NCBI GenBank assembly: GCA_050084515.1 | Contig: CM114271.1 | Coordinates: 18,476,001-18,540,000 of the forward strand | Source of the DNA: Blasia pusilla | Taxonomy: Eukaryota | Reading direction: 5' to 3' | DNA length: 64,000 nucleotides | Shown here: piece after piece, positions 1 through 63,789 of the stretch | How positions within the stretch are numbered: position 1 is the stretch's first letter | Layout: every line of letters begins with the position of its first letter | Translations under genes and position numbers: made by a program | Notes under the pieces: model-generated | Told to the model about the DNA's origin: nothing | The model's input: the letters and a program-made list of their open reading frames with translations, nothing else | Database searches by the model: none

Positions 1-3000
1 GTCATGGAGAAGGGTCCAATCTTTACCATGCCGCCTTATAATATCTGCAAATTTTTCTTTCTCCTCTTGAGTCCATGAGGTCGGCTCCCTCCTTGGCTTG
101 AACTCCCCTGCTGCATTTACCCTAGGTCCTCTCTCCTTAGCATGCCCACTATGGGCCACAGGAGGTGATGTGACAGCAGCAGAAGGAGTTTGTGGCACAG
201 GCAATGCTGCTCCAGCTAAGAAGGCTCCACCACTCTCAAGAGACACAACTGGTTCTGACTTTACAACAATTGCATGATTATTCAGATCCGCTTCAGCTGC
301 AACACACGGGCCACTAGGATCAATTGGTACTGGTGTCGCAATCTGATTGCCAAATTCTTGATCAGATTCTGCTCTGGTAGACTTTGGCACCGTGACTACC
401 TCCGCCTCTGCCTCATCCTTACTTGTAGTTGAATTCACAACATCCTTGTGTATTTTGCTGATACTGTCTGACACTGGGATATCTTTCATCTGCTCATCTT
501 TCATTACTTGCTCAGGTTGTTCCTGCACTTCTTGAGCCAACACCACTACACTACTCTCAACCAAAGCTTCCACCTTCATCGCTTGTTCTTTTCCTACTTC
601 TTTTTCTGACATTTGAGTCACCTTCATATCTGCTTCACCAGTCTTCACTGAAGGCAAGTCCATGAACTCTGCTTCCAAAGCCTTTCCTAACAGCGTTAAG
701 CCGCTTTCAGCTTCATTTGACTCTTGCACTTCCACACTGCATTGCTCTTCTACTTCAGTGCTCTCCATTTCCTGGACTCCAGAGGCTTCAAGAGAAGGGT
801 GCTTGGATTCCTCCTCCATAGCCTCATCAACCACCTTCTGAGCTACCTTCACATCACCAGTAGATTCTGGAGACTTCAGAGATATCCCCACACTGACAGC
901 ATCTGAGACCATAACTTCTTGAGATTGGTCCACCAACTCGTCCAATCTAAAACGCTTGCGTGTTTTACTAAAAAACGTTTTACACTGGGTTTGAGTTTTA
1001 GAACTAACATGGTCTGAGATACTCTTGAAATCCTTTCCATACTTGGCGACAGCATCAGTGAAAAGCTGCCGTTCAGTGTCAGTCCATTGAGATTCAACCT
1101 CCTCCCCTTCACCTTTTGAAGTTGAAGTGTCATGATCCCCAGGTGACGTTCTGACCTCCCGACTTCCACAAGGTTGTTCAGGAATAGCACTCCTAGAAGT
1201 GGACACAACTAAACCAGAAACATTCTTCACAGGTGGCTTTTCTCTGCAAGTTTTTGACGTAGATGGTGTGCTGATGCTGAGACTGCAGGGAGAGATTCCT
1301 GCACTGGAAACATCAGGAAGGCTGACTCCCTTGCTCTCCTTTGGGCACATGGATTTCACTACCACTGGGTCCAAGTTACCAGGATCATAAGTGGTGACAG
1401 GTCGAGATTTATCAACTCCCTTTTGGGATCGGCCCTGTAAGGCCTTCGCACTGTCTCTGGAAGCTGCATAAGCTGCAGCTGCTGCCAAGGTAAGTGCCTG
1501 CACACGTGTAGCATTTACGTCTCTATTCCTGCTGTTGCCAGGAGTAGTAGTAGCCAAGTAGGAAGCATTTGACACAGAGTAATCCCGTCTTTTCTTAAGC
1601 TGTTGCCTCCTCCTAATCTTCTCAAAATCTTCTGACTTCTGATTTCGATAGTAAAACTCTACACAGTCAGCAGTAGTTTTGTGTTCCAGAAAAGAAGCAA
1701 TTTTGCTGAAGTTCTTGTTGTAGATAGCAAACTTTTCCAAAAAAAACTTCTTTTCTTCTGCTGTCCACGGATTGATGGTCCTTCGTTCCTGCTCAAAAGC
1801 AACAGGATCCTCAACTAGCCCATTCCTGCTATCAAACCGCCGAAAGCACCTCTCTTTCTCATCAATGAGCATAGCAGGCATCTTCAAATCCTGCCTGAGC
1901 TGGTAAGTTGGAGCAACTGTCAACATTCTTTTCCTCATTTGCCCATCTTCTTGTCCAGGATCAGATTTCATGGGACCAGTAAGCATAGGCCGAAATCTCA
2001 AGGTCGTATTCGTGGATCGGTTGTTTGTCCCGATACCAGCAGCATTCCGACGCTCTATTTCCAACCTCCGTGCGGGCTTCACACGGTCTTTTCTTTGGTA
2101 TATCCCAGGTTGACCATGCTGACACACATCTTTCAAAGCTCTGTATTTCAAAGCAAGAACACGCTCCTTGAACATCAGTATTTTCTTCCGTTCAGCTAGC
2201 CTTCCCTGCATCCTCGCCCTATTTTTTAAATGGCTTTCTACATTGACATGCCAGACTGGAGTTTCCTCAGGAGTACCATAAAACTTGCAACGATCATCTG
2301 AGGCATCCTTTGCCAACAGATGTGCAAAAGGAGCCATAGATTCTTTAGCTAATCTTCTGTTCTCTTGAATCAAAGAATAAACCAAACTCCACTGATAGGC
2401 CATCAGATCTCTTGGCTCAAATTCAGTAGCTTTCGCTTTCTCCACCACGGGCTTCAACACCAACATCTTGCCATCTGGTAGTCCATTAACTTCAATATCC
2501 ACATCCTTCCCATTAACTTCAACATCCACATCCTTCCCATTAACTTCAATATCCACATCCTTCACCACAGGGTCCAGTGTATCTGCTTCCCCATGCTGCA
2601 GTGCCTCAGCAGAGCAAGCAATTGTTCCTTTCAAATCCTCTCCAACATCTCCTTGTGTTGGTGCCAGATTAGATGGGACGGTCAACTCCACCACTGTAGA
2701 TGGACTGACAGTGAGGCCAGATGTCTTGTCATCTACATCATCCGCAATTGGTGCCGTGGGCTCTGAAACCACTGAGTTGACATGCGTAAGACCATCAGCA
2801 TCTGACTCAAGAACTCCATCTTCACTTGTGGAAGGCATGTCTTCATCAGGGTTTAAGTTTGCAACACCACTCCCAGCTTCTCCCGAGTCGGGAGTGCTTC
2901 CCTCCAGCCCACGAGACAATTTTGCAAGTTCTTTCTCCACGTAATCAATTTCACCTTCCACTTTTTCCACTCTTTGAAGAATTGTCTCCTTCGACCAGCC

Positions 3001-4023
3001 TGAAATGTCGTCTTCGAAATCAGACACAATCTTAGACTTCAGAAAGTCCTCAATGCCTTGCTCCTGCATTGAAACCTTTTTCTGCAAATCAGCCCCATCA
3101 TCCATCTTCTTCCCTGCATGCACATGGCTGCTTGGAAGCGGAGAGTCTAGCTGGTCCAGAGCTCCACTTTGCTTGACAGATGATCCTGCAGAAAGACCAC
3201 CGCTAACAGCACTTCTCACACAAGAACTGTCCGTGTGAATACTCACCAGCTCTGATGCGGTTGAACAAGCCCCTTGAAGTAAAGATCCAAGTCGTACATC
3301 ATGAACCGAACCTGGCTCTGAGAGTTTATTCGAACCTTCAACTTTTTGACCCACAAGCTCAGTTGGCGGCAGAGACTTGTCGCTTGAAATCTCCGGTTGT
3401 AACGCTCGAGCAGAAATAGATGGAAGTTGGCACGCCAAGGTGGACGGTATGCGGTCCACTGCACTTTCCTCTTCAGAATGAAACTCGATCTTACAGACAG
3501 TGTCAGTCTTGGTGGTGCAGGTGGCTTTGGGAACATCTTCGCCATCAGCGCCCTTTTTCCTCTCATACTTGGCTAATCCTTGTCCCCAGCCAAGCCGCGG
3601 TCTCTTAGGTGGAGACAAATGGCTCGCGTCATCGTGACCGATTTCCGAACTTCCCAGTGCGGATCCTCCCGAGAACGTACACACTTGTGGCGAGAGCGTG
3701 TTGGTAGAAACGTCAAACCCGGCTTGGTACCTCGCGCTAGTCTCCTGGGACTCCGAATTGCTCGCAGAAAAGGGTGGACTCCATGAACAACCCTGCGTTC
3801 CAGACGGTCGCTTTCTCCAATCATACGTGGAAGACAAATCTTTCCCGCCGTGTATCGCATCTCTAGAGTGGATATCCCGGCTACTCGCATATCTGTCAAC
3901 CCTCCCTTCCATCTCTTTGTCGATCGAACTCCCATCTCTCCCTGTGTCCAGTTGCAGTGCTGCACCACTTCTTCGGTGCGAATCTTCACGGCTACTGGCA
4001 TATCTGTCAACCCTTCCTTCCAT
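1..4023 (-). CDS. PWR: POWERDRESS / N-CoR-like SANT-domain protein (HDAC co-repressor scaffold); 5' part, runs off the left edge, >=1341 aa
   Basis: Manual translation: ATG at 4023 just after an in-frame TAA (4027-4029). The same frame holds PKRPRLGWGQGLAKYERKK (~3553-3610), LKMPAMLIDEKER..FDSRNGLVEDPVAFEQERRTINPWTAEEKKFFLEKFAIYNKNFSKIASFLEHKTTADCVEFYYRNQKSEDF (SANT1, ~1625-1890), WTDTERQLFTDAVAKYGKDFKSISDHVSSKTQTQCKTFFSK (SANT2, ~965-1086) and WTQEEKEKFADIIRRHGKDWTLLHD (SANT3, 1-75). The ORF track lists no ORF in this frame, consistent with no stop inside the window. Confidence 0.9.
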   Translation of the reverse strand, partial: MEGRVDRYASSREDSHRRSGAALQLDTGRDGSSIDKEMEGRVDRYASSRDIHSRDAIHGGKDLSSTYDWRKRPSGTQGCSWSPPFSASNSESQETSARYQAGFDVSTNTLSPQVCTFSGGSALGSSEIGHDDASHLSPPKRPRLGWGQGLAKYERKKGADGEDVPKATCTTKTDTVCKIEFHSEEESAVDRIPSTLACQLPSISARALQPEISSDKSLPPTELVGQKVEGSNKLSEPGSVHDVRLGSLLQGACSTASELVSIHTDSSCVRSAVSGGLSAGSSVKQSGALDQLDSPLPSSHVHAGKKMDDGADLQKKVSMQEQGIEDFLKSKIVSDFEDDISGWSKETILQRVEKVEGEIDYVEKELAKLSRGLEGSTPDSGEAGSGVANLNPDEDMPSTSEDGVLESDADGLTHVNSVVSEPTAPIADDVDDKTSGLTVSPSTVVELTVPSNLAPTQGDVGEDLKGTIACSAEALQHGEADTLDPVVKDVDIEVNGKDVDVEVNGKDVDIEVNGLPDGKMLVLKPVVEKAKATEFEPRDLMAYQWSLVYSLIQENRRLAKESMAPFAHLLAKDASDDRCKFYGTPEETPVWHVNVESHLKNRARMQGRLAERKKILMFKERVLALKYRALKDVCQHGQPGIYQRKDRVKPARRLEIERRNAAGIGTNNRSTNTTLRFRPMLTGPMKSDPGQEDGQMRKRMLTVAPTYQLRQDLKMPAMLIDEKERCFRRFDSRNGLVEDPVAFEQERRTINPWTAEEKKFFLEKFAIYNKNFSKIASFLEHKTTADCVEFYYRNQKSEDFEKIRRRQQLKKRRDYSVSNASYLATTTPGNSRNRDVNATRVQALTLAAAAAYAASRDSAKALQGRSQKGVDKSRPVTTYDPGNLDPVVVKSMCPKESKGVSLPDVSSAGISPCSLSISTPSTSKTCREKPPVKNVSGLVVSTSRSAIPEQPCGSREVRTSPGDHDTSTSKGEGEEVESQWTDTERQLFTDAVAKYGKDFKSISDHVSSKTQTQCKTFFSKTRKRFRLDELVDQSQEVMVSDAVSVGISLKSPESTGDVKVAQKVVDEAMEEESKHPSLEASGVQEMESTEVEEQCSVEVQESNEAESGLTLLGKALEAEFMDLPSVKTGEADMKVTQMSEKEVGKEQAMKVEALVESSVVVLAQEVQEQPEQVMKDEQMKDIPVSDSISKIHKDVVNSTTSKDEAEAEVVTVPKSTRAESDQEFGNQIATPVPIDPSGPCVAAEADLNNHAIVVKSEPVVSLESGGAFLAGAALPVPQTPSAAVTSPPVAHSGHAKERGPRVNAAGEFKPRREPTSWTQEEKEKFADIIRRHGKDWTLLHD
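2483..2563 (-). repeat. In-frame 27-bp tandem repeat x3 inside the PWR-like CDS (KDVD[I/V]EVNG x3)
   Basis: ccattaacttcaa[t/c]atccacatccttc occurs three times in a row. Confidence 0.9.
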
Positions 4024-5074
4024 CCCTTAGTTAATTGAGCTTGAAATTCTTCCCGTGCCAAGCTGAGCGTTTGCATGTCCTCCACGCTAGGAATCTGTTC
4101 TGTTCTCCCCGGAAATCCCCGTATTTGACCCCGTTCTTCTTGACCTGGTAACTCCCGAGTGACAGAATCGACCACTTTTAACCTTTCGTAATCCCAAGAG
4201 TTCTTAGGATCACAGCCGAGTGACTGATTGAAGGGAATGGCCGAGTCATATCCATCTTCTGAACACGGATAAGATTCACAACAGCAGTCGTCATCAAAAT
4301 CCTTCAACTGAAATCCATTCCCAAGCTTCCCAGCAGATCCTATATTCACGAAAAGAAGACATGACCGAGTCAGCCAGGACCGCAGAACGACACGAACAAT
4401 TGGGGAAATGTCGTAAGGAAACAAGAAAAATGCATCCAACCATCTCAACGCATCCAGTTCGCAGCAACTGTGACCACGCGCGTCTCAATTTCCATGACAA
4501 ATTCCAACAATAAACAACTACTAAACCGAGCATCAACAACGAGCTTCCTCGCAACAATTACCTCGGCCAACCCTGAACCAGATTCGGACACCGACTACTC
4601 TCACACCCACCAGCAATCCTTTCATACTAGGAATTAAACCACACAACCCGTCAACCAGTCGCACATACCAGAAATCCTTCACTGAAACGCGGTACCCACT
4701 ATGGGACAAGAAAAGCGGAACACATTCTGTCCTGCTTCCACACCGACTCCTCCTTCGCCAGCCTTCACCCCACTTCCTCTACCTCCTCAGTTTCCCACTC
4801 ATCCATCACCCGATTCGCACAGACTTTCTGTCAGCGACACCGCGATCGTAAATTGAGCCAGCGATGAAGCAGACACTCCACTGTGATCTAATCGAACATA
4901 CAGTCCAATCTCACCCTCCACAATCCGACACCAAGTACCTCCACGCATCGAGCTAATATCCAATTTAGCGGCCCTGACATACGAGATCCTTCTCGCAAGG
5001 AAGAATTTCTTCGCTCTCTGGCGGGGACCGCCCGAAAATCGTGGGACTCGAGAGCCAAGATCATCACCCCCTGT

Positions 5075-38445: not shown

Positions 38446-39525
38446 CCGACGCCGTGGCGGCAAGTTTAGGGTTTGAACAATTTTACCCTAAAAATCGCCT
38501 AGCAAGGCATTTTTTCAACATTGACCATAATTTTTTTCTCGCAACTCCAAATTGCACACTGTTTGTTGCACAACATTCACAACTTCACAATCATAAAATA
38601 TTTAGAATCAAACATTCCAGTAAAAATAGACGGGGACGGTCGTAAAGCCCATTGTCTCTTTCTCCTACAAAAAATTTGGCTGCACTTCTGCGCTGATTTC
38701 TCCCAACGGAAATGTAAAACCTGTAAAAATATAAATCAACAAGCTCCATGGTGCTCCCGAGAGTGTCGGCATGGGGCAACGTGCCCCCATATTCAATCCC
38801 TATCAGAAACTGGGCAACGCTTCCGCGCGCCACTCTTCCACACGAAAAATCAACATATGCAAAGAACAATCAAAGCAACCCTTGCTCCGATGAGCACTCC
38901 CATGAGCCGCTGAATGGGGAACACGGTCCCGGTGCATGAAAAAATAGTGAGTGACGAATGAGGTCCCCCATGAAGCTCTCTCACTCTCTGATTCTCTCAT
39001 ATTCTCTCTTTGTAAATTAAGATCCAATCTCTCTCTACACGATCTCACACAATAGCTCTCAAATGTGGGCACTCTCTCTCATGTCAAACCAAACCCACTC
39101 TCCTAATGAGAGGATTGGCTTACACTCACAAGGCAAGGGAACATAGCTCCACCGCCTTATGCCAAGAGGTTTAACAAAGAGAGAAGAAGCTCTCAAGCTC
39201 TCTCTCTTGGAGGTATATCCCCTTCCCTCTCCCAAGCCCTCTCAACGGTAACCTATGCTTGTAGGTCATCTCCTTGGCTCCTGGCCTGTTGTAGCGGGTC
39301 AAGGGCCACTTCCTAAAGTGGAAAGTTAACTATCCCCAATATGGAAACTTATTATAAATAGTAAGTTTCTCTATATGGGTCAAAATGAGCCGAAATGAAG
39401 TGGAAACCTGCTCTCTCAAGTTTCTCGGGGCCTTAAAAGGTCATCCTCAACCTCCTAGGCTTGTCCTCCACTACTCGTGTAGACATTCTGCTAGATCCCA
39501 CGGATCTATCCTTACCGTCGTGACA

Positions 39526-40125
39526 ACGGATTTTCAAAGAGTGATGGATAGGATTGTGGCTTGCTTGGATTTTGTACATTGTTACATAGATTATATTCTT
39601 ATCTTCAGTTCCACGGTTGAGGACCATGAGCGACATATGGAGGATTTGTTTGGGCGATTGCAATTACATGGACTGAAGTTACATCCAAGCAAGTGTAGAT
39701 TCTTCCAGGAGCTGATTGAGTACTTGGGACATACCATATACCCGAGTGGGTTAGGCGTTCAATTGACGAAGGTGGAGGCTATTGCGCACATTCCACGCCC
39801 TACAAATGTGAGTCAAGTCCAAGCGTTTCTTGGACTGGAAAACTTCTCTCGATGGTATGTCAAGGGTTTTAGTGTGATTGCAAAGTCTTTGACCTTGTTG
39901 ATGAGACTTCATCATGTTTGGTTGTGAGGAGATGATCAAGAGCGAGCATTTTAGGAGCTCAAGGACAAGTTGACGTCCTCACCCATTTTACACAAACCGG
40001 TTAGGAGTCCCCCATTCCACTTACATACGAATTGGAGCATGTCGGGTCTAGGAGCAGTGCTTACTCAGAGGGATGACGAGGAGAGTGAGTTCGTTGTGGC
40101 TTCCACGAGCCAATCAAACAAGAAA
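39526..40125 (+). mobile_element. RT-RNaseH fragment of the DNMT-carrying gypsy family
   Basis: DFQRVMDRIVACLDFVHCYIDYILIFS..GLKLHPSKCRFFQELIEYLGH..IPRPTNVSQVQAFLGL..PFHLHTNWS..GLGAVL; homologous to 25330-25930. Confidence 0.85.
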
Positions 40126-49068: not shown

Positions 49069-52000
49069 TCAAAGTGGTCTGTTTAAAATACTTCGCACTT
49101 CTTTGAGGGACAGAATTGGTTGGTGGATTCCTACTCCTACCTCCGACTCTCTTAAAACTACCAGCAACACATAGTACATGTGCTTACAAGGAAAATACCT
49201 TTTGCCACTTGTCTCTCGTTGGACAAAGTCATCACATGAACATGTGGGAAAGCAATAGATGTGCACCACATACACCCCTGTGACACTTGAATTTACAGTG
49301 TTATTCCTGACCCAATACATCCTTCCTATTCCATTGCCACTCATGACATCTTTCGTGGCGATGATCTCCATTTTTGCCTCCCGAACTGATGCAATTTCCT
49401 TTGCTCTCTCCACCATTGGCCTATACATTTTGTTTCTCTTCACCCCATTTCTAGACTCAAACAAAAATAGTGGATTGAGATTATCCACCTTCTCCGCGTA
49501 TATGTTAACGTCAATCTTGGGTTGAATACGAAATACGAATGTCTCTCTAATACGAATATGCTCCGAACTTCCTCCATCTACGAGTCTAAAACCGGCACTT
49601 GTAAGATTTTCCACTTCGTCTTGAGTGGAGTTCGTACCTGCGGCGATGGGCCAAATCGTGGGGGTATTCCCCGGAGCTCCAATGGCAGCCGGATAAGACT
49701 TACGAAAAGCGCAAGATTCATTTGGTTTGAAAGAAGTACTTCAATTGATCCCCGGTCCTCGTGAAACGATCAAAGGTTTGGAGTCCCCAAAACCAAGGTA
49801 GTGGTCGTCCAGTCCTAATACAATTCTTATTTAGGAAACTGCCGCATGCTTTCCTTATGCCAACAGATCCTGCCCTGCAAGTGGACCCACATCCTGGGTT
49901 GCTCCGAGATATATGGCACCATTTTAGGTTGCAATCCACCTCCATTACCAGAATCCCATATTGTTGAACCACCCCAACGATCGGAAGTTGCGAACTTCCG
50001 GCAACCGAGGGCTTTTGAAATAAAACATTCACTGATTTTGGAGAAGTTACTCCATCACGGATTTGGGAGCGGTCCGGGGTCCTCGAATGTGTGGGCGGCG
50101 TAATTTCCTCATCCAAATCAATCAACGGATTCGTTTCTCAATGTTGCCCCTTCACCTGCCTGAAGTCAAGATACTTATCTGGTCTCCACGAGTCTCGCTC
50201 GGACTGCTCTACCACCATCTGTATGGGATGTCTTGAAACGCGCCCACGAATATCCCCACCAATGTGTTTGTCTTGCTCGAGGGGAGTTCCTGCTACGCAC
50301 CCGTTGAAGGCTTCAACATAGAGTTTTTCATCACCAGATCTCACAGCCGCCTTGACATAGAGCTTGTAGATCGAAGGCCCCCTTCCTTTTGTTATGCCTT
50401 TTGTGAGGAAGATATGCGATGCTGTAGATTGTAGCATTGCTCTTGCGTAGTCTTGTTGGCATGCCTCCGCAAGTGAAATTCGTTGGCATGCCTGTGACGA
50501 CCTCTAGGAGGAATGAACACTTTTGCTCCAATTGTGTTGGGGCAGAGGGCATTTTCGTGAATGTTCAATCCCTGCAACGACGACAATGTTAGAAGGGAAG
50601 GAAAAGAGCTTTGAAGTCAAACTCTGTGATCCGTCGGGTTCCGACGTCTTGCAACACCCAGGAAACACCTACTACAACCTGGCCGATTCCCGACGGTTTG
50701 CAAGAACCTTTGGCCACTCCGGGTTGGAAGATCCAAGTGCAAGTCATCCGAAACCCATCCAGGTCAAACTATTTGTAGGCCTTGTATGCATGCGACTTGC
50801 ATACTTGTATACGGGTTGCACCAAAATTATGGATGCAAACCGCCGGTTTCCGACTGGTTGCACACACAGGATACCCGTCCGTTTCGGATGGGTTGCACAC
50901 TTGGGCAATCCGTCGAATCCGACAAATTTCTTGGTTTCTTCGGTTCGAAATCCGTATAGTTCCCACGCTTCTCAACTTGAGCTGCAACTTTTCAAACAAT
51001 TCTTAGCGTGAGCTTGACAAGACAAAATAGTGAACTCACCTGCCGTATGAAGTTTCCCCATTGTCTCATACGTATCTTCCACCAACTCAACCAATAGCAC
51101 AACTCTTTCTACTTCCCCTCAATTGCATGCTTCCTCCATCACCCATGAAGTTCTTCTTGGCATTCCATGGCCTATTTCAAGATTTTGGTGTCCTTGCAGC
51201 GTTGGAGTAGAGTGTGACATGCTCTGTCCTCTTATTCTCCTTGATGTAAGATTTGGTGTACCGGGTCACAGACTGTTGCCAATGGAAAGCATCCGACCTT
51301 TCCCTCTCCGATTGAACCTCTCCACCCCATAATACTTCCCTGATAGCAATCCACCCAGGTTGTGCATTGGCCGCCATGAACCCATAAATTTCCAGAGGTG
51401 GTCTTTTGTTTTCCTTCACCACCTCCAATAAGAGAAACCAGCACATCTTCAAACTGCCAACGTCTTCTACTTTTACTTCACAGAGAAATATAGTTTTGAG
51501 TCCATTCTCCACATGGTCATAAACATGAGCACCCATTGTTAACCATCCCTTCAGCACTCTATAGCAAATATCAAAGCTTACCCAGCTCCCGTAAAGATCT
51601 TCCCCTTCCCTCATTCGATCTATAAGATCGAGGCCACTCGACAGACCTGTGGGTGACATTTTGAAGACATAGGCCCAGGACCCCTCGCCTCCCTCATCCA
51701 TGAACTACCATCTTTGAATGAATGGAAATCGGGAGTAGGCCTTGATTGTGGCAATGGCATCCATTTCGGCCGTTTTTCCATCCAACACCCGTATTTGACG
51801 CAATTAATTCCGGAAGCATTCAGGATCAACAAGAAATGCAAGATTTTCCTAGAGTTGTTTCTATTAGCAGTTGTGATCTCGCCCTCTCCTGGGATTCCAA
51901 ATTTTTTTTCTCAAATTTGTGATGATGTTGTGAGCTTGATCACTCCAGGCTTTGAACCTGGAGAGTTTTTGTACACCTCCGCCACTTTCTTTGCGACATC

Positions 52001-53020
52001 CTCCTTGATGTGTCTCTTAATTGCATTGGTCATAGGATGAGTGTGGGAGCCAACATGAATTGCCAACCTTGTGTACTCTGACGTGAACCCTAAACACGCT
52101 CCAACGCAGAAGGGGGATGCGTGACAATAAGGACATCGATGGCCTCCCGGCGGTATGGTGGCACCGATCTCCTATGGAGACCCTATGATTCTTGGGGGGG
52201 AATTGTGACGTACTCACTCGCCCGTTGCGCTCTAGATACGGGCATGCTGGACTTCTATACTCCAAGCCTCCAACCCATTGGCGGCGGGAGACAATCCAAG
52301 GACCATCTGGAATTGAAGCACTAGTCCATTGAAGCCTGAACCATCGATGACAATCAGACTTTCTGTCCATACCCTTCAAGCGTCCTCCATCTTTGTTTTG
52401 AGCAAGAGCAGCAAGTGGAGGCAACTCAAAAATGCAATTACCCTCGTACGTGGGTGGCAGCTCATCGAAAAGAATGTGCTTGAATATTTTCAAGGCCAAA
52501 GACGATAGCAAACTATTGCCTGATACTCGCAGGAGGAACGAGTAGGCGGATAGAGGCCCGGTTGGTGTCTGACAGATCCACTGAGGTTGAAAACATCCGG
52601 AATATCTTCAAGAAGTACAACATTATAACGAGCGTGTGAAGTTGGAGTCGAAGCAGAATCTACATAGCTAGGAGTTGCAAACGTAGAGCTCAGTGCACTA
52701 GGAAATTCTCGACCGTCTACTTGGGAAACAGAGGAATTCAGGGGCAAGCGGTAAACTCTGTATTGACCATTTGCTAGAGGTAGGAGATTCCATACTTTAC
52801 AGTCTGCAATCATTGGCTGGACTGTCTCACCTATCATGTCCTCCGTACCGTCCAACCTAACATCCTTGATTACAAAGATGGTTCCAATTTGGAGAAATCG
52901 AATTGAGAGAACATTTTCATCCACTGCTATGAAAGACTCATGAGCTTGCGGTTGAACGATTTCTGATTGAGGAAGGGACGCTAGATGACTGCCACAAGTG
53001 AGCTTCACATAATTGTCCAT
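49069..53020 (-). pseudogene. Mutator-like transposase: Cys/His-rich N-terminal region, DDE core, C-terminal SWIM zinc finger; intron 50572-51039; frameshifted
   Basis: WVSFDICYRVLKGWLTMGAHVYDH..TIFLCEVKVED..GFMAANAQPGW (second Asp apparently mutated) ..RERSDAFHWQQS (CxxH-like) ..WGNFIRQ|GLNIHENALCPNT..SVHSS; SWIM PTCSCDDFVQRETSGKRYFPCKHMYYV. The GT-AG intron joins in phase 0. Confidence 0.8.
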
Positions 53021-53179
53021 TCCCAGAAGATTCCAGCGTGAGGAGACAGAGAATTGGTATGAGAATGAGAATGTTTAATTAATAGTGAATAGGGACTCAG
53101 ATTCACCTGACAGTTTTTGACTGACAAGATGAAGTTTGGTAGTTGAAAAATGTTTGACACAATGGATCCAATTCTGTTG

Positions 53180-54130
53180 CAACTTGTCGGAGTCAGGTGG
53201 GTTGCAGAATTTGGGAATCAGAGACGTTGGTTTTGAAGCATGCACTTCTTTTTGTTGGAACCCGTCAGAGTCCGTTGGGTTGGTACCCCCTTCTTGCCGA
53301 CCAAAGGTTTTTTGAGTCGATTTTGCTAGCATGAACACAAGATATCCCTTGCATATGCTAAGGCAACCAATGGTTGGGGACTTTTGCGGGATTGTCCAAC
53401 TCAGGGTAGATCTTGTGACCCGTCGGATTGCAATGGGCTCGGAACTATGCGTTGTCACATTGTTATCCGAGGGATAGAAAAGCGTGCAACCTGTCGATAA
53501 CCAATGGGGAACCCTGGTACCTCGCCTATTAATCCAACATAAGCAAAGCGTGCAACCCATCGACTTCAGATGGGTTGCACGCTTCTGCCTCACCTTGTAA
53601 CGCTAACATGAAGGTTGCGCGCCTCCGTCGATCTCTGACGAGTTGCGCGGGTGCTGCGCCTTCTTGCTCGAAGACGGTGGAGGCTCGCAACCCGTCGGCC
53701 TCATACGGGTTGAGCAATTTCCTGACCTTATGTAACTAACTTTAAGGAAGCGTACAACCCATCTCTTTCCAATGAGTTGCGCGGGCCGCACCTTTTTGCC
53801 CAAAGACGGCGGAGGCGCGCAACCCGTCTCAGGCCGACGGGTTGCGCAAGTGTCTCGCCTTGTAACGCTTACATGAAGGAAGCATGCAACCTCTCGGCCT
53901 CCGACGAGTTGCGTGGGAATCCCGCCTTGTTATCCCAAGATGAGGGAAGCGTGCAACCCACCGCAATCCGACAGGTTGCGCGGGTAGCTCACGTTCTTGT
54001 TCGAAGACGGCATAGGCACCCAACATGTGCGTCTCTGATGGGTTGCGTGGGTACCTCGTGTTCTTGTCTAAAGACGATGGATGCCTTGAACCCTCGGGAA
54101 GCGTGCAACATGTCGAAGCCTTCGGGTTGG
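53180..54130. repeat. Array of 27-bp palindromes (consensus GCAACCCGTCGGAnTCCGACGGGTTGC), ~67-bp period, between the divergent genes
   Basis: Copies at about 53179, 53259, 53418, 53486, 53552, 53620, 53687, 53754, 53819, 53886, 53953, 54020, 54104; spacers alternate between two related types. Confidence 0.85.
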
Positions 54131-54228: not shown

Positions 54229-55709
54229 GGGGAAGGCTCGCTCATTTCCGGTTTTTCGTTCCGCGATCTCAATTCCTCTTCCACGCAGCAATTGACCAGA
54301 TACCAAGGGGCGCTTTACACCTTGACTCATCGCGAGACGATTCAAGCAAACGATCATGAGACGTCCTGCTACTCATCAAGGCAACTCATCAAGACATCAG
54401 CAAGCCGACTCATCATGACATCAACAAGGCGACTCATAAAGGTGATTCCTCGAGCTGATTCATTGTGCATAGAGAGCAATTTCCTTGTCCATAGGAGGTA
54501 TTTTTGGACATAATGATGAGGAAAAAATATCAAGCAAACAAGGCTGGGAGCTTCACTCCCAAGTCCATGAGGAACTCTGCTTCACCATCTCCAGGGCCTC
54601 GTTTGGCCAATGAGATAAGGCAGCAAGAAATCGAGGAGCAGAAAAGGGAAGCGGAGAAGCACAAGCAAGAGCTTCTTGCAAAACGTGCACACAAGGCGCT
54701 CGAAAAATATAACGCATAGGCTGAGGCGCCGCATGCCTTCAAGAAAAGGGTCGCCGACGAAAAGCGAGAAAAGAAGGGTCTGGATGCGTCGGTGATGAGA
54801 GCAAAATTGGCAAAAGCTCGGAGGGAAAAAGCAAATGGCATTGGAGAAAGCCCTGCCCATCCAACCAAAAATGTTGAGATGCAGGAAATGTCCCTGATGA
54901 AGTCCGGGAAATGATCAATATAGCGGAAACGCCGAAGTTTAAGTGACGCACGATGAGGTCATGAGGACCGCCAACGTGGAGATGGTGGAGAGCGGTCATC
55001 CTCGTCCCTAAGCCCCACGGAAGAAATCAACCTCTATCGCATCAACGAGTTTCCAATGGACTTGCCTGCTGCCATCCCAGAGCAGTCCGCTGGCCTAGAC
55101 ACCGACCCAATCTTCGAGCGGTTAAGAGAGGATATGTGTTCATTGAATTATGTGAAGGCCCATGTTGCAATTCATTGGCAATTGATTGTAGCTTATTGCC
55201 CTTGTCCCCGCTGTGACAGGTGGTAAAGCAGATGGCACTGATGGAGGGCCAGTACGCCCCGAGAATTCCACTTTTCCGATTGCAAACTATGGAGTACGTC
55301 TGCGAAATTCGGTCTTATGAGGATAATGCGAAGCTGAAATAATCGGCTGCGACAGCATCCTACGTCGACACCTTCCCTCTGTTCTATGTTCAGCCTTACA
55401 ATGACCATGGAACCCTAGCGCTGGTTACGGAGGAGGACTTGGAAGCGCTCGAAACATTCTGGAGGATGAGAAATCAAGAATTTAGAAGGGCGATAGAGGG
55501 GAGAAAATTCAGCAGGATGTGGAACCTGTATTTCTTCATCTGGGATGGAAACCATAGGTTCATGGCGTGGACCCTGTGTGCAAAGGAGCGCCCAAACTCA
55601 TTGGAGGCACATTTTTGCGTGAAGGCAGTGGTGCGACATCCATACCCTCATCACATGGCGACGGTGGAGATGGTCATGCATGCCATGAACATGTAAGTTT
55701 CCTCTTGCT

Positions 55710-56452
55710 GCAAACCGTCGGACTCCTACAAGTTGTTTGAGTCGCCATTGTTTTTGGAATGTTTTTGGCCGAAATCAACTGGTCAGACTCCAACGAGTTG
55801 CTTGGTTGATCAGTGGTTTAGGATTTTTTTTTTCCGAAAGCAACTCGTCGAACTCGGACAAGTTGCTAGACTGATCACTCGTTTAGGATGTTTTTGGCCA
55901 AAAGCAACTCGTCAGAGTCCGACGAGTTGCTTGACTGATTTGTCGTTTAGATTGTTTTTGTCCGAAAGCAACTCGTCGAACTCCAACGAGTTGCTCAACT
56001 CACCGCTGTTTTTGGATGTTTTTGGAAGAAAGCAACTCGTCGGACTCGGACGGGTTGCCAGACTCGAAGCTTTTTTTGGATGTTCTTTGATGTTTCTGGC
56101 TGAAAGCAACTCGTCGGCGTCGACGGGTTGAAACTCGGCAATCACAACTCTGAATGCAATCCCTCGGACTCCGATGGCTTTGCTACTTGCATTCGAAAGT
56201 AGCAAAGCTTCATTTTTGTGGTCAAATTGCACCTTAATTGAAATTGCGCAACCTATCGGACTCTCACGGGTAGATATGTTCACTTTTTTCGCGGAAACAA
56301 CTCTCTAAACAACCCGTCGGACTCCGACGGGTTGAAACTCGGCAATCACAACTCTGAATGCAATCCCTCGGACTCGATGGGTTGCAAATTTTAGCTCGTT
56401 GCTTCCATTCCGACCATGAGCTATGACGACGTGTGGGAGTCCTGACGGGTTG
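55710..56452. repeat. Intronic array of the same palindrome, ~63-65-bp period
   Basis: About 12 copies; perfect example CAACCCGTCGGACTCCGACGGGTTG at 56310-56334; spacers share TTTTTGGATGTTTTTGG. Confidence 0.9.
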
Positions 56453-58029
56453 GAGGGACCCATGTACCTTGCAAAATTTCTAATATTGAGTTCGGATGTG
56501 TAGGATTATATCGGAGGGGAATGTCACCTACCACTCGATCGAGGATTGTGATCGGGTCAAGAAAGTGCTATCGACGCACCCGGTAGAGTACAAGGGGTTC
56601 TTGGGCGACGCCCTTGTAAATGAGATGCTCGCAAAGAGTGCTCGAATAAAAAAAAAGACTTGGGCAAATAAGTTTATTTCCCAAGATGCAGCGGTGACAA
56701 TCGTTTGCTGGTCGAAGATACAGGCTGCCAAGAAGAGTTCTGCACTGGAGCAAGAGCGGAGGGAGAAAGTGTCTGTGTATGAGCGTACAAAGTTCATCCA
56801 TGCTGCAGTATCTGCACCTATGAAGTACACGGCAAGCAAGATGCATCAGTACATGGCCATTCTCAATCCCGAACTTGGCCCCCATTTCTACAAGGAGATG
56901 AAGGCGATCATCAAGCGCCAGCGGAAGAGGGTTGAAGATCCGCAGGGTCGGATTGGGGAGAAAGTGTCTCTCGATCGCGTGCATCGATTTTCTTTGTCTG
57001 GAATTAGCGAATTTAGGATAATCCGATTGATGAAAATCAGTCTTGAGGGCAGAGAGGCCCAAAAGAGGGCGGCACACCATCCTCTGGGTGTCTCTGATCC
57101 TGTGATCTCCCACTGGCTCCGTGAATGGTCATTCTGGGATGCGTTGCGGCTTCTCGGGAAGTCCATGCTCGTGGGTCTCCAAGCGGAGCTGAAAAGAATA
57201 GAGCTTGTTCCGCAGGAAGCAAACTCGGAGAGCGATGAATATTTTGGACTTTGGCTTGATGACATGCGGGACAAGCCCATAAAAAACCCTCGTTTGAGGG
57301 TGATGTTCGAGGATCGCATCCTCCCTCGGGCAGAAAAAAGGGATTTCACAAGGAAGAAGCGAGATCTTCAGGAGCAGTCGGCCGATGCATCTCGACTAAG
57401 AGTTGCCCAACGCATGGTGTTGAGGTACCTCGTCCATTGTAAGAATGCAGGAACATGGCAAAAAATACCGGCAGCTTGCAAATTGTGGGCTTCTTTGCCT
57501 GATGGAGAGATATTTTCCATGTACGATATGGAGATGGCTCAAAGCATGTCCTATTGGGAGGTGGAGAATTTCCTGATTTTGCTAGACTTCAACGACCCTC
57601 AGGACATAACTGAGAAAGATCTATGCTTGCTCTATGACGAAGTGGCCGCAGGTAGGGACATCCCCAATTTTGTGCAGCCTGAAGACTTTTTCGAAGGAGA
57701 CGCAGAGGAGCAAGCCCTTGAGACAGCGGAGTTGGTGTCCAAGGTCGTCACCGCCAAGGACAAATCTACAACGGGTCTCAAAGCCAAGGCGAGGGGATCA
57801 AAGAATTCCGACGCCGAGTCTTCCCAAAGAGAGGCTGAAGATTCAAGGCAAGAGCCGGAATCGTCCAGGCGAGCGGGGAGAGAGGGTTGGACCAGGTCCT
57901 CCGCAAAGAAAACTCCACCTGAGTCTGAGGTCATAGAGACCCTAACAAGCCGACCGCAGACTCGGGAGAAGCGGAAGCGAGATGCGCCAGGGTTGTCCCA
58001 GGCAACACACCAGGATGTGGAATAGACCC

Positions 58030-59773
58030 CATCATCCTTGGAATCGGTTCCCAATCAACTCCTTGAAATCTTCCCAACTCAACGTTTTCCCACAACCTAG
58101 ATGTTCTTTACGGTGAGCTGTCCACCAATGGAGAGCGTGATCCTTCAGAAACGTGACCGCTACAGTCACTTTGTCTTGTTCGTCTCCTTTTTGCGCTTCG
58201 AAATAAAGTTCAAGTTCCGTTAGAAACTCGCTCACTTTCCAAGAACGCCCCATTCCTCTGAATGGCATAGGCGAATTAGTCTTACTAGAGGCTCCATTTG
58301 ACTTGAATTCCGATATCACCTCGCTCTTTTCGGCCATCTGGTCTGCCATCACCTTCATAAATCCCATCATTTGGATATAAAAGGTCGGATCGTTTAAGTT
58401 TGGAACCAAAGGTCCCGCGGAAAGATTTTTGGTTGGAACATCTTCATGTCTCGGGTCTCGGCACTTCGGGAATCGCAAATTCCACCTCTTGCTCTCGGTT
58501 CGTCTTTGATTTGTCTCTCGGCTTTTTTGCTCTGACTCGCGGTTTCCTCGGTTCTTCACCTTTGGTCACCATTTGCGAGTCTTTGCTTTCTCAGATCTCC
58601 TCCTCGCCTCTCGCGTTCCTCCTCGGCGTCGCGGTCTTTCGACTATCTTGAGTTCTCCCCAAACGTCCTGATCTTCAACGACCCCAAGTTCACGCTCAAC
58701 AAGGATTAGCTCTGATACCACGTGTCGTGCGCCTTATCTCCTTGAACGTTAATCTTGTTTGTTTGCAAAAGCGTGCGTGCAGTAGGTCACGCTCTTAACG
58801 CTGATCTGCATCCAAACACGCACTTTGGTTAGTCGAGTCTTGGATCAATTAGTGGGATAAATTTCCGAGTACTTGTCTCGGACTCTCATCAAGCTCAACC
58901 TTACTAGTTTCGCGGTTTACAACACATGCAAATCTCGAAAGACTTGGGACTGACTTTCTGGTGGGTTCAGGAACGTGAAAGGGCGTTTCGCGCCTAGCGG
59001 TTCCAATTGTCTGATGGATATCCAATGAGTTCCTCATCAAGACTCGCACGAAGTGAAGCTCGGGTTGGAATCCAAGTGTGGCGTACAAAGTCCAATCCCT
59101 TGGATCAGGTTTGGGTTTCGAGTTCCCACGCCAAACTCCCGTTCCATCCCGTGCCTTTGAAACGCCGTTTGGCGCCCAAAGTGGGGACTCATTTCCCGAG
59201 ACATATTGGAGAGAGTCCTCCCTTACTAGTTCTTATGGGGATCTCCGCGGGCCCCCTACATTTAGGGAAAGACACCCGGGGCTCTCCAATTGGCCCTTAA
59301 CCCGATTGCTCTTTCAATCGTTTTCCACCAATATCTCTGCTTGTACTTATGCGTTGCTGAGATCTTGGGTGCGTCGCGTCGGAAGCGTCTCAAGATAAAC
59401 TTTCCAACGCGCTCTTGGTTGTCCGGAACACATCTTGGAGATCAACGTTATGGTCCTAAACACAGTCAGATTCTCCCAAACGCTAGTTGTGTTCCAAACT
59501 GGTTCTCACCTCTTTGGCAACCAACCTCCTAATACGCAACTCATCTCAAGTCTTGGCCCGACTTAGTGGTCGCGACCAAGAAACCTAGGTTTCCTGTTCG
59601 CGACCACTCATGCATGAAATGCACAACTCAGTTCCACGTTCGTCTCTTAAACTTTCCCAAGAGACTTTTCCAAACGCCTCTCGAAGGCGCAAACCTCGCA
59701 GCGTGAGTTCCTTTGAGCTCTCATGTTTCGCTTGGCGCCTATTTGGTGTTGTTTGGTTATGAGGGTCGCGACA
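58030..59773 (-). mobile_element. Truncated chromovirus-like Ty3/gypsy insertion: 1051-bp 5' LTR (58723-59773), tRNA-iMet PBS, partial gag
   Basis: LTR TGTCGCGA...GCACGACA; PBS TGGTATCAGAGC at 58709-58720 (minus); gag VSEFLTELELYFEAQ..KVTVAVTFLKDHALHWW..LSWEDFKELIGNRF (ORF 58032-58559). Confidence 0.92.
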
Positions 59774-62258
59774 CCATTAGGTGAATACAATCCATCGGAA
59801 TCGGACAGGTTGCAAGTGCTAATGCTTTTGCAAAATTCTGGAAAGATGCAACCCGTCTGAAAGCGACGGGTTGCTCTTAGCCAACCATGGGCTGCTCTAA
59901 GCCAGCAACCTGTCGCCTTCCAATGGGTAACTCATGGACAAAAAAATCACAAGACACTAGTAAAACATCCCGTCGGACTCCAACAGGTTGCTCCAACCTT
60001 AGGATCATAAAGAAGTTCTCTGGGGTTAAGCGAAGTTCTTTAGGGACGTGTTGCACATTATGTCACCATACTGAGAGTAGACTTGTGGCCAAGTAGCTCT
60101 TTGTTGTTGCTGACATTGTTTCCAATGTGCTTCTTTATAGATGGACCACTCCTATGTTTACTGCTTTGTTCGACCCGAGCACAACTTCCAAGTGTTAACG
60201 ATCATGGATCCTGTAGATCCATGCTCCGAAGGGTACAACTTAGATAGTTTATACAATTCCCCGGAATTTACATGCAAGACAGTACCCCATTACTTGGAGG
60301 AAGGGAAAAGTCACCAGACCTTATGCAAATGCTCATCGAGCTATGGTCAAGTCCGGGTGACGAAAGCGTTAACGAAATGGGCACGCTCACTGGACGGGTC
60401 ATGGGCAGGTCAAAGAATTGGCGGTGGATCTCCTCGTCGCTTATTTGCCCTCGGGGTTGCGCTTGTGGGACGAGAATCCGTCCGACGAGGTCCCGAATTG
60501 GAATGCCCCTCTTTCTTATGACCAGATCGCGCTCCTATTTTCCTTTGCAGACGCTTATCTTTGAGATAGGGGTTGTTTCTTAGTTTTGATTGGAGGGAGC
60601 GAGGACGAGCTCTTCAACCTCCAGTGCGTCAAGACGTCGCTGCAGTGGAGGACAGCGCAATCGTGGGTCATCAAGAACGAGTATCCACTCTGATCTGCAA
60701 CGAGTCAAATTTGGGTAAGGGATCTTAATTTGTATCCAAATTGTGTTTCTCCGACATGTGGCATCTGTGCATGCAACCCGTCGGATTGTTTGAGCTGGGT
60801 CTTTTTGCAATCCGTCTCAAAGTGACGGATTGGAGTTTGAGGGCAAGTCTCGATTGGGTGAATGCAAGCTGTCGAAACCCGACGGGTTGCAAGTGCTATT
60901 GCTTTTGCACCTTTCAGGAATGAAGCAACTAGTCTAAAAGGGACGGGTTGCAAGTGCTAATGCTTTTGCAATTTTCAGTAATGATGCAACCCGTCTGAAA
61001 GCGACGGGTTGCTCTTAGCCAACCATGGGTTGCTTTAAGCTAGCAACCTATCGCCTTCCGAGGGGTTGCTCATGGACAAAAAAATCACAAGACACTTGTT
61101 AAACAACCTCTCGGCCTCCGACAGGTTGCTCCAATGTTAGGATTATAAAGAAGTTCTTTGGGGTTAAGCGAAGTTCTTTAGGGACATGTTGCACATTATG
61201 TCACCACACTGAGAGTAGACTAGTGGCCAAGTTGCTGACATTGTTTCCAACGTGCTTCTTTACAGATGGACCACTCCTATGTTTACTGCTTTGTTCAACC
61301 CGAGTAGAACTTCCACGTGTTTAAGATCCTGGATCTTGTGGATCCATGCTCCGATGGGTTCCGCTTAGATAGTTTATACAATTCCCCCCCGGGAATTTTC
61401 ATGCAAGCTGGTACCCCATTACTTGGAGGAAGGGAAAATTCTTCAGCCCTGATGCAAACGCTAATAGAGCTTTGCTCAAGGCCAAGTGACTTGGTTTTCG
61501 ACTTAGTGGGCCTTTCGGGGGCGAGTATCAAAGGCGCCTTGCAGAGTGCCAGGAACATTCTCTTCCTTGAGGGAAGGCAACAACTGTTTGACCTTTGCAA
61601 GGAGGCAAAGGCAGATTACGACAGGCTAGTTGGGGCGTACAACTCTCCTCCGAGGCCGAGAGCTCTGGTTCCAGACCCACCATTGGTAGTGACACCATCG
61701 TAACTTCCCACGATTCCAAAAATCGGGAGGGCAAGGCCGACAGTTATGTTGGAAGAGCTCTCGGACGATGATGAGTGAGTTCAAAGAACTCAAGGACCGA
61801 GCTTAACTACAGCGTTTGGAGTAGGGATTTATTTGATGACAAGGCAAAAGATTTCATAGAATAGATCAAATGTACAGTTTCGAGCTTCTTTCGGATGTAA
61901 TAAAGGACAAGATTTTTTCAAACGATGATGGTGTTTGTAAAATTTTGCTGAATATCGTTTTTGGTCTTGTTGACTGTGATCGTCTATGTACTCAGAGCAC
62001 TTCTATTTTGCAACCCGCCGGATTTCCACAGCTTGCAACTTTTCACATTTTGACCACTGCAGCTTTTTAACCACTTCCAAGCAATCGGTCCTATTCCGAC
62101 AGGTTGGCTGCGTGAGTGGTCGGACTATTTCGGACTCTTTAGAGGCATTCTGGAGGGCTTCTTCACTTTGGCACCTTCCCTAGTATCGTCAAACAAGGCG
62201 TAGGCTTCTTCTCTTCTCTAAGACATGTTGGATTCCTCCTACCTGTTGGATTGCCATC

Positions 62259-62546
62259 ATGGTATTTCCAAGAACGGAGCACATATTGATACTGGATGGG
62301 GGTCACATTGCAGAGCGTACAAGATATACAGTCGAGGAAGGCGATGGGACTCAAATCAGGTTACATGGGACCGTTATGGTGTACCAAGGGGGGGGGCCAA
62401 GGCTCTCGAATTCGCCAACATTTTTTATCCCCGTCTACAATCGGCCAGAGGAGCCACTTGTATCCCTGGACATTCCTTTTGTACAGGAACCTAGGAGAGT
62501 TAGGAGTAGATTTGTAGATGACGAGGCTGAAGAAATCATAGACTAG
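62259..62546 (+). CDS. Small intact ORF (95 aa) of unknown function ending RFVDDEAEEIID, inside the DNA transposon
   Basis: ATG-to-TAG ORF followed by an AATAAA-containing block that also follows the methyltransferase-like gene. Confidence 0.3.
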   Translation: MVFPRTEHILILDGGHIAERTRYTVEEGDGTQIRLHGTVMVYQGGGPRLSNSPTFFIPVYNRPEEPLVSLDIPFVQEPRRVRSRFVDDEAEEIID

Positions 62547-63789
62547 GTCAAATATACATTTTCGAGATTCCTTCGGATGTAATAAAGGACAAGATTTTTC
62601 CAACCGATAATGGTGTTTGGAAAATTTTGCTGAATATTTTTTTTGGGCTTGTGGATTGTGTTCTTCTAGCTAATCAGAATTACAATTTTGAAACCGTATG
62701 ATTCCGACGGGTTGCAACTTTTCACTTTTTGACTACTACAATTGTAAAACCATTTCCAGGCAAGCTGTCGGATTCCGACAGCTAGGCTGCTTGAGTGATC
62801 AGACTCTTTCCCTGTGAGACCAACTTCTGGCGTATTGTGGCCGGCTTCTTTACTTTTGGCTCATTCCCCTAGATTTGTCAAACCAGTTGTAGGCTTCTTT
62901 TCTTGTCTAAGATGTGCAGGATTTCTACTACGTGTCGGCTTGCCATTTCCTCCTCCGAACCTGTTGAATTCTCGTGGGTGGTGGGTGGAATGAAATCACT
63001 TCTCAAAATCTTTCCTTTGTTATGGTGAGCTTGCTTGCAAGGGGTGCAAGCCATCTGATTCCGACGGGTTGCAAGAGTTGCAACCTGTTAAATTCCGACG
63101 GATTGGGAGGGGTGCAGCTTCTCGGTTTCTTAGATTTAGGATGTGAATGAAGGGACATCAATTTCTCTTTACTCCAGACAGCTAATAATCTTTTGGTTCA
63201 ATTATCGTCTCCTATGTTCACATTTCACAAAGTTGGTCTTTATTTGATCCTTTCATTGAGATGAGATTGCTACTTCTAGTCAAAGTATCTGCCTAATGGT
63301 CCTCCAACAAAAATACCCTTGGGCGGAGCTTACTATAGACTGAGACAGGCAATGTGAAGAAACTTAGGCTCACATGGAGAGTGATGTAGTGGGCTTATGA
63401 TGTCTACTTGTTTTTCGCCTCCTGGAAAAAGAAGGTTTATTTAGGCCCGAATGTGGACCACTACCTACTCTCTTCTAAAGATTTCATGAATTTGAAAGGA
63501 AACAAAAAATTCAAATATGTCAAAAAGTTTCAAAGAGAGGAGGCGGATTTGGCCCTTTCTTTTGAAGAGAGACTCTTCTCTCTTCCTCTCTTCCTCTCTT
63601 CCTCTCTCTTGCCAAAATACCAGCCCCCAATCTCTCCGATCTTTCCTAAAAAGTTGAGACAGTTGTTGTGTGCATACACATCGCTCGCCCAACTTGCTGG
63701 TGTTTAGGTCCCTCTAACTGATAGCCATCTTTCCCTGCCTACCATGACATACATCTGTCAAACGCTCTGAGCAAGAAGGCCGAGTGGTC

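Follow-up and report, generated by a model that had tools for sequence, protein, structure and literature searches.

A beta-class methyltransferase-like gene copy with degenerate motifs in a repeated family of Blasia pusilla

Introduction

Can a mobile element of a eukaryote keep a DNA methyltransferase domain whose catalytic motif is broken, and what would such a domain be for? This question is raised by a locus of Blasia pusilla (positions 60373-61703, plus strand) within the 64,000-nucleotide stretch analysed here, which is called the window and corresponds to positions 18,476,001 to 18,540,000 of the forward strand of contig CM114271.1 (NCBI GenBank assembly GCA_050084515.1); all coordinates below are counted from its first letter. 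Two exon-like segments of this locus, separated by a presumed intron, together resemble a beta-class DNA amino-methyltransferase. An original prediction, made from the sequence alone, had proposed a hidden domain of this class that is read through two TGA codons, that holds VDLLVAYLPSG in place of the usual catalytic motif IV, and whose family consensus might carry an aspartate codon (GAT) instead of the tyrosine codon (TAT) of this motif.

Transposons with DNA-modification genes of their own have been described only recently, mainly in algae, and to our knowledge none of these genes has been tested biochemically. With moderate confidence in the explanation taken as a whole, we regard 60373-61703 as the two final exons, in a broken copy, of a gene that lies on a highly repeated mobile element.

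Results

Homology of the last exon to beta-class DNA methyltransferases

The coding part of the last exon extends from 61266 to 61703 on the plus strand. It holds an in-frame TAG (61305-61307) that the original prediction did not include, and the open frame behind this stop, 61308-61703, reads ...RENSSALMQTLIELCSRPSDLVFDLVGLSGASIKGALQSARNILFLE.... The Pfam family PF01555 (N6_N4_Mtase) matched the window last exon with an E-value of 0.02 over positions 168-219 of the 221 of the profile. Among 1.84 billion representative proteins, a single match was found, a 147-residue protein (P0001) that shares 39% identity with the last exon (E 2.4e-5) and that itself matches PF01555 over the identical Pfam stretch (E 1.8e-4). 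P0001 has 37 relatives at 65-89% identity, carried on ENA contigs of up to ~1.2 Mb, which indicates a repeated family in another organism; a precomputed PF01555 label is present on 3 of these 38 proteins. The window last exon was aligned with 21 of the 38 proteins, the longer ones being chosen (alignment A1, 22 members). PF01555 was matched by 21 of the 22 members at E ≤ 0.1, with a best E-value of 4e-6.

As an independent reference, we used an alignment of YhdJ from E. coli with 12 annotated phage methyltransferases, taken from 40 listed of 783 matching records (alignment A2). Comparison of A1 with A2 by hhalign gave a probability of 95.3 and an E-value of 2.1e-8 over 52 columns that comprise motif X, motif I, and the following GR..IGIE. 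The top matches of the A1 profile in the PDB were 5hek (E 2.6e-4) and 5hfj (E 3.9e-4), both 'Adenine specific DNA methyltransferase (DpnA)', at residues 171-230, while CcrM was found at E 0.95. DNA-methyltransferase families of PHROGs were matched by the window (E 8.7e-4 and 2.3e-3) and by the protein P0002 (~2e-6). With P0002 as the query, tblastn retrieved 52 phage records and 25 plasmid records (E ≤ 0.1); among the 30 rows listed, 26 give a DNA methylase or methyltransferase under the match and 4 give no such name. When metagenome and viral contigs were scanned with A1, they yielded 132 and 121 pattern matches, respectively, of which 0 were confirmed.

The whole window, translated in six frames, was also scanned with a hidden Markov model (HMM) of A2. 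The best match of this model was 61446-61595 on the plus strand, which is the motif X-I region of the last exon and includes motif I, FDLVGLSGAS (61497-61526), as well as the motif II Glu (61569-61571). The A2 HMM score of the last exon was reached by 0 of 2000 shuffles. A fold model computed from the last exon and A1 was of low confidence and covers this single exon only (predicted local distance difference test score, pLDDT, 56.5; predicted template modelling score, pTM, 0.33). Judged by these profile comparisons, the last exon derives from a DNA amino-methyltransferase of the beta class (PF01555), of which it represents the motif X-I part. Its assignment as a piece of such an enzyme was borne out both by the match between A1 and A2 and by the recurrence of PF01555 in A1.

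Exon 1 in the proposed frame and order

Exon 1, the candidate first half of the domain, occupies 60373-60714 on the plus strand. The frame that starts at 60373, directly preceded by a TAA (60370-60372), reads RNGHAHWTGHGQVKELAVDLLVAYLPSGLRLWDENPSDEVPNWNAPLSYDQIALLFSFADAYL(stop)DRGCFLVLIGGSEDELFNLQCVKTSLQWRTAQSWVIKNEYPL(stop)SATSQIW, and its opening part up to the first TGA is RNGHAHWTGHGQVKELAVDLLVAYLPSG...FADAYL(stop). A candidate acceptor AG is found at 60407-60408, and motif IV, VDLLVAYLPSG, at 60424-60456. The first TGA, 60562-60564, falls within AYL(stop)DRGCFLVLIGG and the second, 60691-60693, within SWVIKNEYPL(stop); both codons, together with the motif strings quoted in the original prediction, are present in the window sequence. 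When exon 1 was compared with A2 by hhalign, AVDLLVAYLPSG paired with SVDLIxTDPPY and AYLXDRGCF with RILKxxG.

Exon 1 and the last exon were then joined by script, with stops entered as X, and scored with the A2 HMM. The score went from 9.2 bits for the last exon to 12.7 bits once exon 1 was joined, a gain of only 3.5 bits, for a joined domain of ~235 residues. The alignment crosses the junction, where SWVIKNEYPLXSATSQIW followed by MDHSYVYCFV is placed on W.K ... hE..l.f.K. A score of 12.7 bits was matched by 0 of 2000 joins made with shuffled exon 1 and by 1 of 2000 joins made with random pieces of the window. The remaining five frames of the exon 1 DNA gave 7.8-8.1 bits after joining, and the reversed exon order 8.3 bits. 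Since the gain is specific to one frame and one order, the frame, the order, and the splice phase all fit a permuted beta-class domain, in which motif IV precedes motif X and motif I (exon 1 at A2 columns 21-86, last exon at columns 188-239). Exon 1 may thus be the N-terminal half of the methyltransferase-like domain: the frame and the order proposed for it stood, while the fit itself was only weak.

The presumed intron, 60715-61265 on the plus strand, opens with GTAAG from 60715 and closes with TTTACAG up to 61265 (AG at 61264-61265). Exon 1 closes in phase 0, and the reading frame entered at 61266 is that of the open stretch 61308-61703. The intron carries copies of a palindrome that is described below (for instance at 60987-61011), in units of ~61 bp whose number varies among copies of the family, as seen from joints in genomic reads. 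Between 60786 and 61012, many of these joints skip or repeat 66-198 bases. The RNA depth over the intron bins 60740-61063 was 0 in all three RNA runs. From these features we infer a splice between 60714 and 61266, which is compatible with the RNA data.

A repeated and transcribed family

Reads from one genomic run (of which ~1 in 100 was sampled) and from three RNA runs of the same organism were mapped at a likeness of at least 90% to 60362-61960 only, an interval that keeps out a direct repeat located upstream. A total of 3152 genomic reads mapped, and only 14 of them did so at a likeness of at least 99%, the others lying at 95-99% (202 reads) or 90-95% (2936 reads), which shows a repeated family. 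This copy is a diverged member of it, and the 14 near-identical reads set a bound of ~1 on the depth of a single copy. The DNA depth, summed over both read directions, was ~10 over 60362-60415, roughly 67-120 over most of exon 1 (~76 from 60416 on), 16-243 over the intron, and 435-723 over 61550-61960. Exon 1 would thus exist in roughly a hundred copies or more and the 3' end in several hundred. The deepest genomic coverage, at 61550-61960, shows that the element's 3' end, or something derived from it, is far commoner than the coding part.

The three RNA runs gave 25, 32, and 25 mapped reads, nearly all at 90-95% likeness, with 5 at 95-99% and none at 99% or above, which indicates that the transcripts come from other copies of the family. 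In usual stranded libraries, a first mate on the minus strand corresponds to plus-sense RNA. Over the last exon, the first mate was found almost only on the minus strand. RNA depth over this exon starts in the bin that contains the acceptor (61226-61279), peaks at 12.5, and fades over 61874-61960, just after an AATAAA at 61899-61904. Given this signal and the one-stranded fading, 61704-61930 on the plus strand is likely the 3' untranslated end of the transcript.

The genomic reads also allow the codons of this copy to be compared with those of its family. At 60442, a T>G change in 73 of 77 reads turns the motif IV Tyr (TAT) into Asp (GAT), as had been predicted, and the family thus reads DLPS; the other three motif IV codons have no variant among the rows listed. 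The family is nearer to the enzyme consensus than this copy at three further places, most reads giving PGD at 61485, GR at 61549, and, as in the P0001 family, D at 61408. Over the motif I codons (61497-61526), the rows listed hold one synonymous variant only, at 61517. Turning to the stops, 55 of 58 reads disagree with this copy at the third position of the 60562 codon, and 137 of 144 DNA reads do so at the first position of the TAG at 61305. Two of the three stops (60562 and 61305) are private to this copy. A CGA>TGA origin had been suggested for the TGA at 60562; it did not hold, since the family differs at the third letter of this codon. A selenocysteine at 60562 was ruled out as well, the same 55 reads carrying no TGA there.

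Degenerate motifs IV and I

Beta-class enzymes carry (D/S/N)-P-P-(Y/F/W) as motif IV. This copy reads YLPS and the family DLPS, the latter without the first Pro and without the aromatic residue. Motif I, F-x-G-x-G in the enzymes, is V-G-L-S-G-A-S in the window, with a Leu for the first Gly, and A-S-T-G-A-S in the P0001 family, with a Ser at that place. In all 13 A2 enzymes, these motif I columns hold G-S, and motif IV ends in Y. Since motif I is degenerate also in a family of 39% identity, its departure from the consensus appears to be old and kept.

Decay and rearrangement of this copy

The copy under study was also reshaped by rearrangements. A direct repeat links 59803-60361 with 60941-61490 (86.3% identity over 563 nucleotides, frameshifted). 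The extra partial copy, 59776-60361 on the plus strand, duplicates 60853-61490, that is the tail of the intron and the head of the last exon, and ends just upstream of exon 1; the A1 family HMM also matches 60218-60394 in this duplicated region. The end of the duplicate at 60361, together with the jump in DNA depth near 60416, points to a rearrangement breakpoint, and most members of the family are without the upstream partial-copy junction. Another direct duplication, of 77% identity, was observed just 3' of the last exon (61811-62257 and 62496-62946).

Farther upstream, a fragment of a Ty3-type retrotransposon gag lies antisense at 58032-58565, perhaps up to ~59770, on the minus strand (PF19259 Ty3_capsid, E 7.7e-7, 29.2 bits for a cut-off of 29.1). 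It sits between the methyltransferase-like exons and an open frame of 511 codons (56490-58025, plus strand), whose stop is followed, after six bases, by the antisense gag frame (from 58032). The gag fragment is probably an insertion or a rearrangement that truncates the 511-codon frame. This copy is a pseudogene, as it carries three stops and a foreign insertion and has been rearranged.

Upstream frames and palindrome arrays

The 511-codon frame belongs to no family that we recognised, both the word-based search and the Atlas being empty. An exon-like open frame is found ahead of it at 55343-55696 on the plus strand; it carries the motif FFIWDGNHRFMAW (DGNHR) and ends in a GTAAG donor. Its nearest Atlas cluster scored 0.94, and 11% of the members of this cluster carry PF02195 (ParB_N). 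Searches of Pfam, PHROGs, NCBIfam, the PDB, and phage sequences by tblastn, as well as the word-based search, gave no match for the DGNHR exon, and its single-sequence model was of low confidence (pLDDT 51). A ParB/Srx-type domain at 55343-55696 is a possible lead to follow.

Right behind this exon, at 55711-56057 on the plus strand and in what would be the first intron, six units of ~64 bp form a tandem array (spacing 64-65), and each unit contains a palindrome of 25 nucleotides, CAACYCGTCRGA N TCYGACGRGTTG. The window contains 17 matches to this palindrome for 0 expected, all within 44.1-63.1 kb, and an array of inverted repeats is thus found at the gene itself, six of the 17 palindromes being in tandem. 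The protein of the element itself may bind to these palindromes. We infer that the methyltransferase-like exons are linked both with the exons farther upstream and with the arrays of palindromes.

Other features of the window

The window as a whole is eukaryotic and repeat-rich. On its minus strand, a chain of open frames covers 49069-53602, the last of which (49069-49740) has a SWIM-like zinc finger below the cut-off (E 0.0018). The segment 51177-51704 (minus strand) resembles the core of a DDE transposase by eye, and no transposase family was matched by the minus-strand frames of 49.7-53.1 kb. An open frame of 1342 codons (1-4026, minus strand), which continues beyond the edge of the window, encodes three Myb DNA-binding repeats (E 1.3e-26); its match to DUF7952 falls narrowly below the cut-off. 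A reverse-transcriptase fragment at 39358-39927 on the plus strand (RVT_1, E 5.4e-13) is unrelated to the gene studied here.

Discussion

The explanation that we favour can be put as follows. Both exons would descend from a prokaryotic or phage beta-class (N6_N4, PF01555-type) DNA amino-methyltransferase and would have kept its permuted order of motif IV, helper motifs, motif X, and motif I. The motif IV DLPS and the motif I VGLSGAS are degenerate in the family and not just in this copy, and the degeneracy of both is what suggests a pseudo-enzyme, whose fold would be kept for binding of DNA or cofactor, or for scaffolding, within an accessory protein of a transposon. As judged from these motifs, methyl transfer has probably been lost, the domain binding rather than methylating.

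Several results weigh against this explanation. The last exon scores 15.3 bits with PF01555, under the gathering score of 26.7, and exon 1 has no match to this family. As a single sequence, the last exon finds a light-harvesting protein in the PDB (E 0.29) as well as DpnA (E 0.32), and the N-terminal part of the A1 profile also matches the unrelated C3a-receptor (E 0.012-0.017). Exon 1 taken alone has zero matches in Pfam, PHROGs, and NCBIfam, and nothing better in the PDB than a mitomycin-binding protein (E 0.7); against A2 it yields E 0.075 and a probability of 0.75 by hhalign, and 0.3 bits with the HMM, a score that 29 of 2000 shuffles attain. A 60714>61266 joint is absent from the RNA joints listed, and the RNA depth over exon 1 amounts to one read. 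The TGA at 60691 may be common to the family, no variant being found there among the rows listed. Finally, it is only from the motifs that catalysis is taken to be lost; a cofactor loop could still be built by G-L-S-G, and the D, the G, and the motif II Glu are all retained.

These points can be read in different ways. Chance matches in non-coding repeat DNA, with nothing real behind them, are hardly credible: the window's own scores do all fall under curated cut-offs, and this copy is untranslatable without stop read-through, but an independent family in another organism reaches E 2.1e-8 with true enzymes, the same Pfam stretch recurs in 21 of the 22 A1 members, and no shuffle out of 2000 equalled the last-exon score. 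It is rather unlikely that only the last exon derives from a methyltransferase, the resemblance of 60373-60714 being fortuitous or this segment being no exon of the gene in question. Such a reading would account for the lack of significance of exon 1 alone in any library, for its two stops, for its single RNA read compared with a depth of up to 12.5 on the last exon, and for its DNA depth, several-fold below that of the 3' end, so that many copies may lack exon 1. It leaves aside the gain in joined score, which is confined to the proposed frame and order, the motifs that come in the expected order and spacing, the canonical GT..AG bounds with matching phases, and the predicted Tyr-to-Asp state that was confirmed in the family.

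The retained residues raise another alternative, which the motifs make quite unlikely, namely that the family protein is an active DNA amino-methyltransferase that would use an unusual DLPS motif and cofactor loop in order to mark the DNA of the element with N6-methyladenine (6mA) or N4-methylcytosine (4mC). An acidic residue does open motif IV in 73 of 77 family reads, PGD and GR are read in the family as in working enzymes, and three residues have been kept, namely the Asp that precedes motif I, one Gly in the loop, and the Glu of motif II. Moreover, members of the family are transcribed from one strand, and algal transposon proteins of similar build are predicted to methylate DNA, as described in PMC12477816. 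However, the first Pro and the fourth, aromatic residue of motif IV are both replaced, and a change from SPPY to APPA is described as abolishing the activity of the rotifer enzyme N4CMT (PMC8885841). In addition, GxG has lost its first Gly, which is replaced by Leu here and by Ser in the distant family, and none of the 13 A2 enzymes has such motifs. We therefore retain the pseudo-enzyme as the favoured interpretation.

What makes the locus worth attention is a methyltransferase module that lacks both hallmark motifs and is still recognisable across two organisms, in hundreds of copies or more in a large genome. As a tentative and speculative extension, a 'dead' methyltransferase domain might have been kept in mobile-element families of at least two organisms as the reader or clamp of a ParB-like accessory protein whose targets are the palindrome arrays of the element itself. 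If true, such a reader or clamp might, for example, detect modified DNA or protect it, or it might draw in host silencing or escape it. The element would then encode an epigenetic pseudo-enzyme and not a writer, and accessory proteins of transposons could evolve from writers into binders. The protein and the palindrome array form a concrete pair that can be tested. For annotation, the locus illustrates that a domain broken by stops and split by an intron can be recovered through reads of its family.

Comparison with known systems

The bacterial and phage beta-class enzymes (5hek, 5hfj DpnA, YhdJ) are those with which the motif X-I region aligns and whose motif order is kept here. The gene differs from them by motif IV, where DPPY or SPPY is replaced by DLPS (by YLPS in this copy), and by motif I, where VGLSGAS takes the place of FxGSGTT; its Pfam scores are below the cut-off, it is split by an intron, and it lies in a eukaryotic repeat. 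Two captured enzymes of eukaryotes are closer in setting. The rotifer N4CMT carries SPPY and was reported to be active (PMC8885841), and Marchantia DN4MT1 is described with an intact TSPPY/SPPY-type motif and with activity (bioRxiv 10.1101/2021.02.12.428880). Like them, the gene studied here would represent a permuted PF01555-type domain captured by a eukaryote and interrupted by introns; unlike these single or few host genes, it is a high-copy gene of an element and has Y/D-L-P-S in place of SPPY or TSPPY.

Among mobile elements, DIRS and long terminal repeat (LTR) retrotransposons have been described with prokaryotic DAM adenine methyltransferases whose catalytic pocket is kept (bioRxiv 10.64898/2026.05.21.726589). 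They share with our case a prokaryote-derived DNA methyltransferase domain on a eukaryotic mobile element. Their domain belongs to another methyltransferase family and is fused to reverse transcriptase or recombinase proteins, whereas no such domains adjoin the present gene; an origin from a DIRS/DAM retrotransposon was ruled out on these two grounds.

Elements with accessory genes offer nearer parallels. In the 21.5-kb transposon Sola1-1_Ec32 of Ectocarpus, Dinatale et al. describe an accessory protein of 1104 amino acids with ParB-like and N4/N6 DNA-methyltransferase domains. As in that protein, we find what would be a large multi-domain protein, encoded on a repeated DNA element, that has an N4/N6 DNA methyltransferase domain of the prokaryotic type at one of its ends, a candidate ParB-type region upstream (as a lead only), and a proposed action on the element's own DNA. 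The two differ in that both diagnostic motifs are degenerate across the family here, the ParB region is a candidate, the copy is a pseudogene, and no transposase is tied to the element; this comparison is one of descriptions and not of sequences. In the Plavaka elements of Bostrychia, Petroll et al. (bioRxiv 10.1101/2025.02.11.637652) describe PAG2, which combines an N6-adenine methylase with SET, and PAG3, which combines a ParB-like domain with a 2-oxoglutarate (2OG) oxygenase and is adjoined by tandem inverted-repeat arrays. Tandem inverted-repeat arrays beside or inside an accessory gene, and a domain resembling epigenetic enzymes on a transposon, are thus common to both cases. The combination of domains is another one, and the arrays of the present element lie in presumed introns; binding to the arrays is hypothetical in both.

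For the role proposed here, paralogues of the METTL14 type provide the precedent, as they are described as inactive proteins that have kept the methyltransferase fold (PMC4738411). By analogy, a methyltransferase fold with broken active-site motifs could act as a binding or scaffold partner. METTL14 itself is of a different clade, being a host gene of the MT-A70 clade that acts on RNA with an active partner, whereas we know of no active partner here. A limited search of open-access text retrieved no report of a catalytically degenerate version of the transposon accessory genes. Accessory genes with ParB and methyltransferase domains on transposons are a kind already in print, and it is its degenerate motifs that set the gene of this Blasia pusilla family apart.

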